NCBI GenBank assembly: GCA_964354495.1
Contig: CAYHAA010000002.1
Location: 80,234-144,233 of the forward strand
DNA length: 64,000 nucleotides
Reading direction: 5' to 3'
Source of the DNA: an uncultured archaeon
GTDB lineage: Archaea > Asgardarchaeota > Thorarchaeia > Thorarchaeales > Thorarchaeaceae
The notes under the pieces were generated by a model, which searched no databases, was not told where the DNA came from, and saw nothing but the letters and a program-made list of their open reading frames with translations. Positions within the stretch are counted from its first letter, which is position 1. Each line of letters opens with the position of its first letter. Shown in pieces: positions 48,403-52,149 of this stretch. Both the position numbers and the translations under genes were made by a program.

Positions 48403-49086
48403 TTAGATCTTCTTGGAACCTTCTCGAATTACAAGTTTGGTCATCCTATCTCGATGAGTTTCGAAGTATCTAGCGACTAACTCAGGTTCCCTCTTACTTA
48501 ACTCACGTAAAACCCACCCGGCAGCCTTTCCAACAAAGAACTCCTCGTCAGAGATGTGAGGCGTGACTCCATCAAGTATCCTCTTGCTATATTCCTGTCT
48601 GTATTGAGCCTTTAGTGATAGGTAGAGATAAGGCAACACTGAACAGCGGCGCCTCCAGAAGTTCTCAGACTTGCGCCATGACTTGATGACATTCTCTACC
48701 TCAGGGTCGCGAAGTAAGAGGATTCCAATTGTGGGAGAGCAGAGAGGGTCGGTGATCCCCCACGTATCAGCTTCGTCAATCCAAGAGTCAGCGATTCCTA
48801 AAGCCACAATAACATCGCCTTTCCGCGCGTATTCCCTCATAACATCGATTGCTGCAGCTCGAGTTTCAAAAGTCTTGGTATTCCACAGCATCTTCATGAG
48901 AACAGGCAAATCATCAATCAACAGGTTGTGGATATTCGCCTTCACAATCCGATGGATGCCCGGGAGCTCAACTCCTATGAAGGCAAGACTTGATGTCCTA
49001 AGATAGCTGGCCGACCTCGCTTTTCTTTCCGAATTGCCACTCGACTCAAGCTCTGAGTAAATACGTCCGCATACCTGTTCAATCAC
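48403..49086 (-). CDS. DNA alkylation repair protein, AlkD/AlkC-like HEAT-repeat glycosylase family
   Basis: 227 aa all-alpha protein with conserved Trp/Arg positions (FVGKAAGWVLRELSK, WRRRCSVLPY) typical of the DNA_alkylation family. Confidence 0.55.
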   Translation of the reverse strand: MIEQVCGRIYSELESSGNSERKARSASYLRTSSLAFIGVELPGIHRIVKANIHNLLIDDLPVLMKMLWNTKTFETRAAAIDVMREYARKGDVIVALGIADSWIDEADTWGITDPLCSPTIGILLLRDPEVENVIKSWRKSENFWRRRCSVLPYLYLSLKAQYRQEYSKRILDGVTPHISDEEFFVGKAAGWVLRELSKREPELVARYFETHRDRMTKLVIREGSKKI

Positions 49087-49170: not shown

Positions 49171-50217
49171 TCAGGTGCCCTGGAGGAAGGACATATCCGC
49201 CTTCTTGAAAGCAGCGAACGCGCTCTTGCCTTTCTTTTCGTCGAGTGCTTTCGCATATGACTGGAGAGTCTTGAGAGATGTCATGCCGCCAAGAGCATCA
49301 TCAAATGAAATCTTCAGAGCCCAGACGGGCTCACCTGTGACCGGAATGCGCTCCCGCAACCAACCGGTGGGAGTCATGAGCTTGTTCCTCTCCCGAGTGA
49401 AAAACTCCATCTCAGAGAGAATGCCTATTCCAGACATTACGTCAAGCCATCGTTTCCAAGCATCTTCACTAGTGGGAAAACCTGATGTTCCTGTCTTATT
49501 CGCATTAATCGTTATCGAGTCAACTGAAACCTTTGTATCTTTCAATGTTCCATAACTCGCTATGATCCACAGAAGACGGAGCAGGACTTCGCGATGAACA
49601 ATGAGTAGCTCCTGACCTGCGATTGTATCGATATCGCTCAAGCCGAGGGAGGATGTGATGACTTTGGAGAGAGCATTATGGAGTGCCAGATACGCTGTGC
49701 TCTTCTTGTCCATCTTCACCTTGGGAAACGCCAGTGTCTTTGGCGTTTTCAGATCGACTCCTTCCACTTCACGAATTTGGTCAGGACCAAGACCAGCTCG
49801 TATTTCATCGAGGGCCTTCTTTCCTTCGTAGGGTCTTAGGTATACTTGATACTTGTCATTCGGGATAGGTTCGCCTAGACGTTCTTCTGCTTCTTGTACC
49901 CTATCAACACGATTCATCGCTTGGATTTTATCACACGGGTACCTTGAACAAAACGCACAATTCTCAAAATGATTATGAAAGGCACACTTACGGGAAGGGC
50001 AACCTCTGATGAAGTTGTGGACTCCTACATCCTTTGCTAGTTTCTCATTCGGCGTTTGACAGCCTTGACAGGGATTCTTCGCTGGCGTGAATCCCAAATA
50101 CCTCTTTGCATCCTCGACATATGACTCCCACTCTCCTGGGCTTTGATTCGTTCGAATCCAATGACCCCACGGGCATATTGAGCACAAATTCCCACACTTG
50201 CTGATTACTGGTTTCAT
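49171..50217 (-). CDS. Cys-rich (DUF3795-like zinc-binding) N-terminal domain fused to a ~240-aa domain with no recognisable family
   Basis: The N-terminal ~100 aa carry CGNLCSICPW, CQGCQTP, CPSRKCAFHNHFENCAFCSRYPC (10+ Cys). The C-terminal domain is soluble with no motifs I recognise. Confidence 0.4.
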   Translation of the reverse strand: MKPVISKCGNLCSICPWGHWIRTNQSPGEWESYVEDAKRYLGFTPAKNPCQGCQTPNEKLAKDVGVHNFIRGCPSRKCAFHNHFENCAFCSRYPCDKIQAMNRVDRVQEAEERLGEPIPNDKYQVYLRPYEGKKALDEIRAGLGPDQIREVEGVDLKTPKTLAFPKVKMDKKSTAYLALHNALSKVITSSLGLSDIDTIAGQELLIVHREVLLRLLWIIASYGTLKDTKVSVDSITINANKTGTSGFPTSEDAWKRWLDVMSGIGILSEMEFFTRERNKLMTPTGWLRERIPVTGEPVWALKISFDDALGGMTSLKTLQSYAKALDEKKGKSAFAAFKKADMSFLQGT

Positions 50218-50465: not shown

Positions 50466-51323
50466 ATGGAGACAACTGGGATGAGTGTTGAGCTACCTGA
50501 AGCAATGATTCTTGCTGAGCAAATGACAAAGACGTTACTCGGCAAACAAATCAAAGCATGTGAAATGTGGGACTATGAGAAACTGCAGAAAATCGGGTTC
50601 TTCAATAAAGACATCAAAGAATTCAATCGCCTCATAGGCTGTAAGATAGCGTCAATTCATCAGCGCGGAAACGTGATTCGCATTCAATTGAATAAAAAAC
50701 TGAATCTCGTGTTGAGTCCGGACTATGGGGCAGAAATCCTCTACCATTCATCCGAGGAGTCACTGCCAAAGAAGCATCATTTGAAAGTCGGCTTTGCAGA
50801 TGGCTCATATCTGACAATAAGGCAGACAGGCATGGGGATGATATACTGTGCAGCAGACAATGAGGTCAATAATCTATATGTTGTCAAACGGGATTTCTCA
50901 GAAACTCCGTCCCCTATTGGAGAGAATCAATTCACCTTCGACAAATTCACTGAGCTACTGGATAAAAGGGGTCAGAACATCAAGGCAGCTCTCGTCGGAA
51001 AGACTGCAGTTGTAGTAGGTCTAAGTAATGCTGCATTTCAAGAGATAATCTACAAAGCAGGAATCCATCCAAAGAGGAACACCTCCACATTATCAGAGAG
51101 TGAGAAACACGCCGTCTTCGAGGCTATGAAGGAGATTCTCAATGCACGCGTTTCTTCAGGTGGAAAGGAAAACTGGATTGACCTCTATGGAAAACCAGGG
51201 CGTCATACTCCAGTAATGGGTTCCAACATGAAGGACAAGAGCTGTCCTCAATGCGGGGCAAGAATTGAGATGATAGCTCATGGAGGCGGTCAGGTCTACT
51301 TCTGTCCAAGATGTCAGAAATGA
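50466..51323 (+). CDS. Fpg/Nei-family DNA glycosylase (H2TH + C-terminal zinc finger) with non-canonical N-terminus
   Basis: N-terminal SVELPEAMILAEQM aligns to Fpg PELPEVE with Val at the Pro2 position. H2TH motif LVGKTAVVVGLSNAAFQEIIYKAGIHP and zinc finger CPQCGARIEM...GQVYFCPRCQ are present. The probable start is the ATG at 50481 (MSVELPE). Confidence 0.7.
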   Translation: METTGMSVELPEAMILAEQMTKTLLGKQIKACEMWDYEKLQKIGFFNKDIKEFNRLIGCKIASIHQRGNVIRIQLNKKLNLVLSPDYGAEILYHSSEESLPKKHHLKVGFADGSYLTIRQTGMGMIYCAADNEVNNLYVVKRDFSETPSPIGENQFTFDKFTELLDKRGQNIKAALVGKTAVVVGLSNAAFQEIIYKAGIHPKRNTSTLSESEKHAVFEAMKEILNARVSSGGKENWIDLYGKPGRHTPVMGSNMKDKSCPQCGARIEMIAHGGGQVYFCPRCQK

Positions 51324-51408: not shown

Positions 51409-52149
51409 ATGGTAGATCTATTCTTTGGAGACTTGACCCTTCCGGATGTCACAATGGCAGCTGCAACTGGAGTAGTTGCTTCACTGGTTTTGACAGTTGC
51501 ATACTACATGGCGTCGTCAGGGAGACCTAGATGGAAGGCAAGAAAACTCGTTCATGCTTCAATGGGTACTGTTGTGGGTCTTACTCTTGTGGGATACTCG
51601 AATTTGAGCGGGCCGACATTGGCGGCAGCAATCTTCTTGTTCATTCTCTTTTACGCCTGGGCTCACAAGAGCGAGCTCATCTGGGACTTGCTGCTCGCAG
51701 GCAGTCGTGAGGGCGAATCTCGCGCGAATACATTCATGGCAGGTCTAATGGGCATGATTTCCTTTGGCACCGTTTTCCTTTTGTTTTTCTCCAGACCAGA
51801 GATTTTCGTGGCGGCTATCCTCGCTGTTGCATGGGGAGATGCAGCCGGAGAGGTGATAGGGAGGCCTTATGGAGGCAGAGTCTTCAAACGTAGGTTCCGG
51901 AATAAAACAGTCGAGGGGAGCATTGGCGTATTCATATTCACCGTTCTCTCAATCTTGGCATCGTTGGTCGCTTATTCTCCGGACACATGCATTTCTTGTG
52001 TCTTTCCTCTAGTTCTCATAGTAGCGGCCTGTGCCACAATTGCTGAAGTTCTCAGTATTGGATGGACTGACAACTTCTTTATCCCTATGGTAACGGCCAT
52101 AGCTATGTGGTTGTTTATCTTTCCAGGAATAATCCTTCTTCCACTGTAG
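51409..52149 (+). CDS. Polyprenol/dolichol-kinase-like CTP-dependent membrane protein (CdsA/DolK/VTE5 family)
   Basis: 7-TM protein with the C-terminal signature WGDAAGEVIGRPYGG...NKTVEGSIGVF. Confidence 0.45.
   Translation: MVDLFFGDLTLPDVTMAAATGVVASLVLTVAYYMASSGRPRWKARKLVHASMGTVVGLTLVGYSNLSGPTLAAAIFLFILFYAWAHKSELIWDLLLAGSREGESRANTFMAGLMGMISFGTVFLLFFSRPEIFVAAILAVAWGDAAGEVIGRPYGGRVFKRRFRNKTVEGSIGVFIFTVLSILASLVAYSPDTCISCVFPLVLIVAACATIAEVLSIGWTDNFFIPMVTAIAMWLFIFPGIILLPL

Follow-up and report, generated by a model that had tools for sequence, protein, structure and literature searches.

A thorarchaeal protein of the Fpg/Nei fold without the N-terminal proline is one of a large and seemingly unstudied clade

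The window analysed here, a 64,000-nucleotide stretch of thorarchaeal DNA, harbours a gene for a stand-alone protein, predicted to be 280 amino acids long and translated from the ATG at position 50481, which has the full Fpg/Nei fold (β-sandwich, H2TH domain and zinc finger). The residue at the site of the catalytic N-terminal proline (Pro1) is Val, and an additional Ser precedes it. The protein lies inside a clade of 116 Pro-less sequences and carries every feature by which that clade is defined; the clade is large and apparently unstudied. To judge from its sequence, the protein probably works unlike Fpg or NEIL3.

The longest open reading frame at this locus (50466..51323, + strand) comprises 285 codons, and its translation opens METTGMSVELPEA. 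The upstream context indicates that the second ATG (50481) is the true start, and the Fpg-like coding sequence most likely translated (50481..51323, +; 280 amino acids and the stop codon) begins M-S-V-E-L-P-E. The five codons before it (METTG; 50466..50480, +) represent a spurious extension, inside which lies a ribosome-binding-site-like motif, ATGGAGA, whose GGAG (50468-50471) is separated from the true start by 9 nt. Of 20 Thorarchaeota loci, 18 carry a (G/A)TGGAGA motif 4–9 nt before the conserved start, and in other loci the frame 5' of the start either contains stops or is not conserved as coding sequence. Several orthologues have an in-frame stop immediately before the M-S-[V/I]-E start. 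ATG 50466 was ruled out as a start because it is situated within the conserved motif and because the extension lacks conservation. The nearest in-frame stop lies 8 codons 5' of this ATG, and no Pro codon usable as a start occurs in frame between the two. Both a conserved upstream start yielding Pro and a sequencing error within the first 30 nt were checked, and neither occurs: the motif at ATG 50466 and the orthologue stops exclude them, the former being ruled out also by the upstream stop and the missing Pro codon, the latter by the conservation of the N-terminus in more than 110 homologues.

Three Pfam domains were detected above their cut-offs, namely the N-terminal β-sandwich Fapy_DNA_glyco (PF01149; 50490..50819, +; residues 9–118 of the 285-aa ORF; 32.7 bits against a cut-off of 25.5), the H2TH DNA-binding domain (PF06831; 50922..51164, +; residues 153–233; 50.1 against 34.7) and the four-Cys zinc finger zf-FPG_IleRS (PF06827; 51243..51320, +; residues 260–285; 30.2 against 21.3), and no others exceeded the cut-off in the 285-aa ORF. 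A weak NFACT_N match over the H2TH region (E 1.2e-5) falls below the cut-off. The protein terminates one residue past the Fpg-type zinc finger, and β-sandwich, H2TH domain and β-hairpin zinc finger occur together within one chain, as expected of the superfamily, whose chains have ~270 residues. The AF2 model (pLDDT 92.8) displays the expected helix-plus-strands pattern in the N-terminal domain, and a Foldseek search with this model returned TM scores of 0.81–0.83 to MutM/Fpg. The initial annotation considered the H2TH and zinc-finger parts intact. At the domain level this holds: the zinc-finger cysteines C255, C258, C275 and C278 (280-aa numbering) are invariant, and the H2TH domain retains N183 (equivalent to the phosphate-contacting N171 of Lactococcus lactis Fpg, LlFpg), Lys168 (equivalent to K157) and an H-P-K-R motif. 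It does not hold for the zinc-finger Arg (LlFpg R260), which is replaced by an invariant Gly-Gly-Gly.

In a phmmer search against the PDB, E9-L-P-E of the query aligned with E2-L-P-E of L. lactis Fpg, so that V8 (285-aa numbering) coincides with Pro1 and S7 with the canonical initiator Met; the A1 profile gave the identical register, with query position 4 corresponding to Fpg position 2. The S-V-E-L-P-E motif (50484..50501, +) thus comprises Ser2, Val3 at the Pro1 site, Glu4 (Fpg Glu2) and Glu7 (Fpg Glu5). Hence two initial observations, that Val occupies the catalytic Pro position and that an extra Ser precedes it when translation starts at the second ATG, proved correct. Among the 120 closest homologues, 114 share the pattern [M/V/L]-S-[V/I]-E-[L/I]-[P/A/S]-E, the remaining six being truncated gene calls. 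The M-S-[V/I]-E start is common to more than 110 homologues from at least 50 genomes, and an alignment of 53 family sequences shows no variation at Ser2, Glu4 or Glu7. Sequence comparison indicates that the family is under strong purifying selection; 53 positions, many of them polar or charged, are invariant among sequences of 54–93% identity.

An exhaustive profile search yielded 3320 cluster representatives at E<=1e-10, and among the top 150 profile matches Pro1 is absent from ~105 of the 129 full-length proteins. In a neighbour-joining tree all 116 Pro-less sequences formed one clade with no canonical member within it. This clade was defined by a hydrophobic residue at the Pro1 site, one extra predicted residue before it, retention of Glu2 and Glu5, and the absence of the zinc-finger hairpin Arg. 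The hydrophobic residue, Val in the window protein, would be buried. Its members are hosted by Thorarchaeota, Bathyarchaeia, other Asgard archaea and many anaerobic bacteria, including the culturable Oscillibacter valericigenes Sjm18-20 and Bacteroides sp. 51. A full-text literature search, in which few subscription journals were covered, turned up neither a Pro-less Fpg clade nor any account of Fpg/Nei proteins in archaea. The window protein scores below the cut-offs of the NCBIfam models NF002211 (104.6 against 212 bits), TIGR00577 (104.0 against 203.3) and Nei (53.9 against 252), and the database name “formamidopyrimidine-DNA glycosylase” probably overstates what is known of the clade members.

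The N-termini of the Pro-less clade come in two types, M-[small]-Φ-E and M-[bulky]-E. The residue after Met is permissive for methionine aminopeptidase (MetAP) in 35 of 36 M-x-Φ-E representatives and in 5 of 66 M-x-E representatives (Fisher p = 9e-21), so that both forms are predicted to give rise to the same mature end, X-Φ-E-L-P-E, one residue longer than normal. In the window protein the mature chain would begin with Ser after Met excision, and in the bacterial M-I/L-E forms Met would be retained; excision in Thorarchaeota is assumed from general MetAP specificity, and the Ser may be N-acetylated. The residue at the extra position varies across the clade (S, A, G, T, P, M), and some distant Asgard relatives (L060, L062) encode M-V-E-L-P-E. 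The fixed predicted length argues that the cleft around the N-terminus is functional. A strict N-terminal length would be equally expected if the α-amine of the extra residue were the nucleophile.

The replacements extend well beyond the N-terminus. The Gly-Gly-Gly of the zinc-finger hairpin (51282..51290, +) stands in place of the canonical Fpg G-R-G/T with its phosphate-clamping Arg260 (Arg258 in Escherichia coli); in the family alignment G268 and G269 (280-aa numbering) are invariant and G270 is present in 52 of 53 sequences, and across the clade the LlFpg R260 position is Gly in 77% of members, compared with Arg in 8 of 11 Pro1-containing sequences. In the β-sandwich domain the Lys57 of the “RGK” motif is replaced as well: an Asn codon, AAC (50670..50672, +), turns “RRGK” into “QRGN” at the site of this catalytic or phosphate-binding Lys, and of the 53 family sequences 47 have Asn at this position and none has Lys. 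The void-filling and wedge residues of Fpg are more difficult to place, as the equivalents of Met75, Arg109 and Phe111 are Tyr, Thr and Met by MAFFT and Tyr, Arg and Thr by pairwise phmmer, the two being offset by 2 residues. The 129-sequence MAFFT alignment, anchored on an invariant Gly (LlFpg G112), assigns Met118 (280-aa numbering; 50832..50834, +), located in the hairpin loop Q-T-G-M-G before the invariant Gly119, as the putative equivalent of the Phe111 wedge. A Met at this position is probable, since the Gly-anchored alignment and the loop boundaries of the model favour it, although pairwise phmmer conflicts; by MAFFT the members of the clade have M, W, Y or F as the wedge residue. Missing from the sequences of the clade are thus Pro1, the Arg of the zinc finger, Arg109 (according to MAFFT only) and usually Lys57. 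Retained in the clade (LlFpg numbering) are E2 (93%), E5 (95%), K157 (96%), N171 (92%) and the four Cys (97–99%). The initial suggestion of a catalytically altered family member is therefore supported and can be extended, as the replacement of Pro1, Lys57, Arg109 and the Arg of the zinc finger marks a whole clade and is not a one-off case.

The set of retained residues (Glu2, Glu5, Asn171, Lys157, the hydrophobic wedge and the zinc-finger hairpin) would correspond to the parts required for DNA binding and cleavage of the glycosidic bond, and the set of lost ones (Pro1, Arg260, Arg109 and usually Lys57) to those of the Pro1 imine, β,δ-elimination and opposite-base recognition. Because the former are kept and the latter lost, the likeliest model, which we favour only tentatively, is that of a lesion-binding monofunctional DNA glycosylase. 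The conserved Glu4 would promote hydrolytic release of the base without an N-terminal-proline Schiff base or an AP-lyase (β,δ) step, and the substrate would probably be other than the oxidised purines of Fpg; Met excision, a DNA substrate, glycosylase chemistry and loss of the lyase are all steps that we infer. The separability of the two activities is known from Mycobacterium smegmatis Nei2, in which Pro2Ala abolishes the AP-lyase and preserves 5-hydroxyuracil glycosylase activity, and Glu3Ala abolishes the glycosylase and preserves the lyase (PMC11323726). One must bear in mind that the glycosylase activity of Nei2 also needs the Lys51 equivalent (PMC11323726), and since this Lys is Asn here, the case for a monofunctional glycosylase is weaker for the subfamily of Thorarchaeota and Bathyarchaeia.

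The N-terminus itself suggests another reading, to which we give a modest chance, that of a register-shifted bifunctional glycosylase/AP-lyase in which the α-amine of the extra residue (Ser, or the retained Met of the bacterial proteins) attacks C1'. By the MetAP statistics given above, exactly two residues would precede the catalytic Glu in the mature chain throughout the clade, the side chain at the extra position is variable, which fits a backbone amine that alone matters, and Ser2 is invariant in the subfamily of Thorarchaeota and Bathyarchaeia. Primary α-amines are capable of such chemistry, as NEIL3 uses Val once Met1 has been removed; the same requirement for Met1 removal shows, however, that an extra residue blocks at least NEIL3 (PMC11323726). 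The loss of Lys57 and of the zinc-finger Arg, which serve elimination and contact the flanking phosphates, along with Pro1 fits the loss of lyase activity better, and steric limits in the DNA cleft could also fix the N-terminal length. The N-terminal Thr of T4 endonuclease V acts as a nucleophile, which speaks for a register shift. On the other hand, Ser at the N-terminus of archaeal proteins is often acetylated, a modification that would block the amine.

The simultaneous replacement of Pro1, Lys57, Arg109 and Arg260, the score of 104 bits against NCBIfam Fpg equivalog cut-offs of 203–212 and the preservation of the DNA-binding elements would also suit a non-catalytic derivative, i.e. a binder of DNA or damage (a sensor, a scaffold or a protector of abasic or unusual sites) which uses the Fpg fold without catalysis. 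Such a role seems unlikely, as Glu2 and Glu5 are kept in 93–95% of the clade representatives and never vary within the thorarchaeal family, which is unexpected for a pure binder, other acidic and polar residues are conserved as well, and a strict N-terminal length would not be anticipated either. An RNA or other non-DNA substrate, envisaged by analogy with the NFACT-N/RqcH branch, appears improbable; the NFACT-N domains share the fold, have no conserved Pro and have the Lys replaced (PMC4075521), and the sub-threshold NFACT_N match over the H2TH region points in the same direction. An ordinary Fpg/NEIL3-type enzyme with a true N-terminal Pro or Val, produced by a wrongly assigned start, a sequencing error or atypical processing, is hardly credible: Val does occupy the Pro1 position and the distant Asgard L060 and L062 do encode M-V-E-L-P-E, but the M-S-[V/I]-E start is conserved as described above, stops lie directly upstream of it in several orthologues, the ribosome-binding-site motif is conserved, no in-frame upstream Pro codon exists, and to our knowledge there is no general mechanism for removing both Met and Ser. 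For the same reasons (the conserved start, the upstream stops and the motif), the original proposal that a different start or processing renders Val N-terminal is disfavoured.

The surroundings of the gene lend no support to any pathway. ORFs were called in 74 loci and clustered by all-vs-all BLAST; synteny (a 246-aa membrane protein, AHSA1, a nitroreductase-like protein and others) was restricted to Thorarchaeota, and no neighbour was shared across lineages in these 74 loci except DUF3795, found in 4 of them. A role in anti-phage defence was rejected, there being no PADLOC match, and a 2025 preprint on antiviral glycosylases did not report an H2TH defence family of this type. Within the 64,000-nt window tblastn detected no second copy of the gene, and scans for tRNAs and Rfam families gave no matches there.

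The proline imine counts as the hallmark of Fpg/Nei chemistry, with the Val of NEIL3 as the single exception, and the present clade departs from it while being strongly conserved. If its members are active, the fold would support a different mechanism or substrate class and archaeal base-excision repair would gain a missing piece; if they are inactive, they would make up a large family of DNA binders descended from glycosylases. A more far-reaching proposition, which we regard as rather doubtful, is that the clade embodies a new catalytic solution in the Fpg/Nei fold, employing either the α-amine of the residue one position before the Pro site (Ser after Met excision in archaea, the retained Met in bacteria) or no amine nucleophile at all, directed at non-oxidative lesions in strict anaerobes and making H2TH glycosylases native to Asgard archaea and Bathyarchaeia. 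Were it true, it would contradict the published absence of H2TH glycosylases from Archaea, and the NEIL3-style M-V-E starts of the Heimdall type would reopen the question of the origin of the eukaryotic NEIL enzymes. In two surveys the family is said to be missing from Archaea and to be dedicated to oxidative damage (PMC4075521, PMC8307549).

Among the known systems, Fpg/MutM (L. lactis 1PJI, Geobacillus stearothermophilus 1R2Y and Thermus thermophilus 1EE8) share ~23–25% identity with the window protein. It differs from them by Val at the Pro site with an extra Ser before it, by the changes of Lys57 to Asn, Arg260 to Gly, Met75 to Tyr and Arg109 to Thr (the last being alignment-dependent), and by its archaeal origin, the reviews calling the family absent there (PMC4075521, PMC8307549). 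The Pro following the initiator Met has been described as “absolutely conserved” in Fpg/Nei proteins (PMC4075521), where it supplies the N-terminal secondary-amine nucleophile (PMC11323726). The canonical β-sandwich Lys (Lys57 of Fpg, Lys52/53 of Nei, Lys51 of Nei2) is absent as well, the window protein having R-G-N.

With NEIL3, to which the initial annotation had likened it, the protein shares the superfamily, a non-Pro hydrophobic residue (Val) at the nucleophile position beside a conserved Glu, and probably the partial lack of void-filling residues. In NEIL3, however, Val directly follows Met1 and forms the mature end, whereas here an invariant Ser separates the two. NEIL3 has a C-terminal extension with additional zinc-finger domains, and the window protein lacks an extension of this type. 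A specific kinship was ruled out, given that the closest relationship in sequence and structure is not to NEIL3. For the Heimdall M-V-E relative L062 a specific kinship was likewise rejected, its NEIL3 match (E 2e-4) covering 55 amino acids.

M. smegmatis Nei2 (PDB 8TJG) possesses both Pro2 and Lys51, whereas the window protein has neither, and the Nei2 gene shares an operon with the Lhr helicase, whereas the gene described here is without a conserved partner. The NFACT-N domains (RqcH/NEMF/Tae2) resemble the protein in that they form a branch of its fold with no conserved N-terminal Pro and with the Lys replaced, but they differ from it in the Arg-Asp motif at the Lys position and in their multidomain architecture (PMC4075521). 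What the window protein has in common with the Fpg/Nei superfamily is an acidic residue adjoining the nucleophile position, its Glu4 aligning with Glu2 of Fpg.

The longest ORF at this locus, 50466..51323(+), encodes a product of 285 aa with the N-terminus METTGMSVELPEA, in which Pfam domains Fapy_DNA_glyco (aa 9-118), H2TH (aa 153-233) and zf-FPG_IleRS (aa 260-285) were all detected above the curated cut-offs. A phmmer search of all PDB chains gave L. lactis Fpg (LlFpg) as the best match (E 2e-21). In this alignment E9-L-P-E of the 285-aa query is paired with E2-L-P-E of LlFpg, which places Val8 at the position of Pro1 and Ser7 at that of the canonical initiator Met, bearing out the N-terminus described in the initial annotation. 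Two more replacements, absent from that annotation, are seen in the same alignment: Lys57 is replaced by Asn ('RRGK' reads 'QRGN') and Arg260 by Gly, the zinc-finger hairpin 'GRGTHFCP' reading 'GGGQVYFCP'.

An in-frame stop lies 8 codons 5' of ATG 50466, and translation of the upstream frame back to this stop revealed no Pro codon usable as a start. A search of 5.8 billion proteins yielded 422 relatives, and N-termini were compared in the best 120 of these, almost all from Thorarchaeota and other Asgard MAGs and mostly 280 aa long. The start [M/V/L]-S-[V/I]-E-L-P-E is present in 97 of the 120; another 17 have a longer gene call, yet M, V or L still precedes the Ser, and the remaining 6 are truncated gene calls. 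At the DNA level (74 genomes), the conserved start codon is ATG, GTG or TTG, with an in-frame stop directly 5' of it in several loci (L012, KWR-stop followed by VSVELPE; L014, SRE-stop followed by MSVELPE; L020; L066) and a (G/A)TGGAGA motif 4-9 nt 5' of it in 18/20 Thorarchaeota loci. The window version of the motif is ATGGAGA, the ATG of which doubles as codon 1 of the 285-aa ORF. Taken together, the conserved M-S-[V/I]-E start, the adjacent stops and the motif place the predicted translation start at ATG 50481, with a product beginning M-S-V-E-L-P-E. A conserved upstream Pro start is ruled out by the missing Pro codon and by the stops directly before the start in orthologues, and a sequencing error near the start by its conservation among the best 120 relatives.

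The AlphaFold2 model of the protein, for which a 53-sequence alignment was used as input, is confident (pLDDT 92.8, pTM 0.90). Foldseek placed bacterial MutM/Fpg at the top of the PDB matches (TM 0.81-0.83) and NEIL3 at rank 49, and the family profile matched Fpg/MutM over the full length (E 2e-27), Nei with E 4e-8 and NEIL3 with E 2e-4 over the C-terminal half only. The NCBIfam Fpg and Nei equivalog models scored about half of their cut-offs or below, which rules out an Fpg equivalog. On these comparisons, the protein truly belongs to the Fpg/Nei fold, being closest to bacterial Fpg, and the NEIL3-like label of the initial annotation has to be dropped; its suggestion that Val becomes N-terminal found no support either. 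A true NEIL3-style start, M-V-E-L-P-E, occurs in two distant Asgard relatives (L062:4998-5819, Heimdallarchaeota YT1_002, and L060:4998-5816), the Val of which could become N-terminal. The former retains the Lys57 equivalent and matches bacterial Fpg with 3e-24, versus 2e-4 across 55 residues only for NEIL3.

When 1.84 billion cluster representatives were searched exhaustively with the family profile, 8769 matched with E<=1e-3, 3320 of them with E<=1e-10. Three N-terminal classes were drawn from the top 150 matches: type A, M-[S/A/G/T]-Φ-E-L-P-E (Φ, hydrophobic), which includes the product studied here; type B, M-[I/L/M/F/Y]-E-L-P-E; and the canonical type C, M-P-E-L-P-E, scoring only ~120 bits against the family profile. 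In a neighbour-joining tree rooted with LlFpg, 116/116 type-A, type-B and unresolved-start sequences group into a single clade from which canonical sequences are absent. No description of this Pro-less clade was found in the full-text literature searched. A GTDB scan with one genome per species gave 190 relatives; among the best 80 of these, identity is 66-90% in Thorarchaeota, with MAG OWC2 of that group the nearest and identical in local gene order, and 45-54% in Bathyarchaeia. Further hosts among the 80 are Atabeyarchaeia, other Asgard lineages and a few bacterial MAGs with type A, and type B occurs in Heimdallarchaeota, Chloroflexota, Atribacteria, Clostridiales, Oscillospiraceae (including Oscillibacter valericigenes Sjm18-20), Bacteroides and Alistipes. 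We take the hosts of the clade (loci L005-L084) to be strict anaerobes nearly throughout, namely sediment archaea, Atribacteria, Clostridiales, Bacteroides and Alistipes, which is odd given the reviews tying the family to oxidative damage. Two surveys report the Fpg/Nei glycosylase family as absent from Archaea (PMC4075521, PMC8307549), and its N-terminal proline has been called 'absolutely conserved' (PMC4075521).

A small group (P0186, P0190, P0252, P0192, P0261) takes an intermediate branching position between the Pro-less clade and canonical Fpg, still having M-P-E-L-P-E (or M-A-E-L-P-E) and Lys57 but no longer the zinc-finger Arg (hairpin 'GTTSSY[IV]CP'). The relative P0173 starts M-P-I-E-L-P-E, its Pro being at the extra position and not the canonical one. 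Another, P0237 (741 aa), matches the Fpg-like N-terminal domain in its first ~126 residues only and is thus a fusion or mis-assembly. Judging by locus tags, single Thorarchaeota MAGs also harbour paralogue pairs (EU527_13785 and EU527_12830; E4H14_08030 and E4H14_15935; proteins P0003/P0087 and P0039/P0084), every one starting MSVELPE.

Across representatives of the Pro-less clade (LlFpg numbering), Glu2 (93%), Pro4 (89%), Glu5 (95%), Lys157 (96%), H2TH Asn171 (92%), hairpin Gly112 and the four zinc cysteines (97-99%) are kept. When anchored on the invariant Gly, the Phe111 wedge position is hydrophobic or aromatic (Met118 in the Thor-type family of close relatives, W/Y/F elsewhere); since the pairwise alignment is off by two residues, Met118 is only the probable wedge equivalent. 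Pro1 and Arg109 are lost, the Arg260 position is Gly in 77% of the clade (Gly-Gly is invariant in the Thor-type family), and Lys57 is gone from most members, being Asn in 47/53 Thor-type sequences. In the Thor-type family, with identities of 54-93%, 53 positions are invariant, and polar or charged residues occupy many of these, which points to strong constraint. The proposal of a catalytically altered family member is supported by the tree and the residue losses, and its scope widens to the clade as a whole.

Met-aminopeptidase cleaves off Met only when the second residue is G, A, S, T, C, P or V. Such a permissive residue follows Met in 35/36 type-A cluster representatives and in just 5/66 of type B (Fisher's exact test, p = 9e-21), so that one common mature N-terminus, X-Φ-E-L-P-E, is predicted for both, exactly one residue longer than canonical P-E-L-P-E. 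As the side chain of X varies (S, A, G, T, P, M), selection appears to act on the position of the chain end, not on its side chain. Such a fixed position agrees with a role for the alpha-amine or with narrow steric limits set by a functional DNA cleft, and is at odds with decay of the active site.

The neighbourhood of the gene suggests that it acts alone: clustering of neighbour genes from 74 loci found no partner conserved across lineages, synteny being confined to Thorarchaeota. A PADLOC scan for defence genes gave no match. The divergent gene at 49171-50217(-) codes for a Cys-rich DUF3795 protein (348 aa), homologues of which adjoin the Fpg-like gene in 4/74 loci (Thor, Bathy, another Asgard lineage and a bacterium), the only, and weak, cross-lineage recurrence. 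A multi-pass membrane protein without a Pfam match (246 aa; 51409-52149(+)) is encoded 85 nt 3' on the same strand and is possibly co-transcribed; its gene follows as the first to fourth gene in 11/18 Thorarchaeota loci. An AlkD/AlkC-type HEAT-repeat 'DNA alkylation repair enzyme' (48403-49086(-); PF08713, E 7.6e-44) lies 1.4 kb away on the opposite strand, and the pair is also close together in Thorarchaeota loci L003 and L005, not outside Thorarchaeota.

We infer the function of the Pro-less proteins, including this one, from sequence. The kept set (Glu beside the nucleophile site, H2TH contacts, wedge residue, zinc hairpin) would serve DNA binding, wedging and glycosidic-bond cleavage, and the lost set (Pro1, Lys57, Arg260, Arg109) imine formation with beta,delta-elimination and opposite-base recognition. 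As the favoured, though tentative, reading, the protein may be a lesion-binding DNA glycosylase in which Glu4 would drive hydrolytic base release, with neither a Schiff base at Pro1 nor a lyase step, on substrates probably different from the oxidised purines handled by Fpg. A register-shifted amine nucleophile on Ser1, with which the N-terminal length rule is also compatible, seems unlikely. Slightly less probable still is a non-catalytic DNA binder, against which the conserved Glu residues speak, and an NFACT-like, RNA-directed function is quite improbable, structural distances speaking against it. That the enzyme is canonical, its N-terminus having been mis-called, is scarcely credible.

The protein joins a known fold to an altered catalytic core and unexpected hosts (archaea, anaerobes), and its clear N-terminal sequence rule opens the mechanism to direct test. 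The main weakness of the glycosylase reading emerges from comparison with M. smegmatis Nei2, the glycosylase activity of which also depends on Lys51 (PMC11323726), whereas the equivalent position here is Asn. In the same enzyme, Pro2Ala abolished AP-lyase and kept 5-hydroxyuracil glycosylase activity, and Glu3Ala had the reverse effect, glycosylase being gone and AP-lyase kept (PMC11323726), which indicates that the Fpg/Nei fold is able to release bases without the proline amine.
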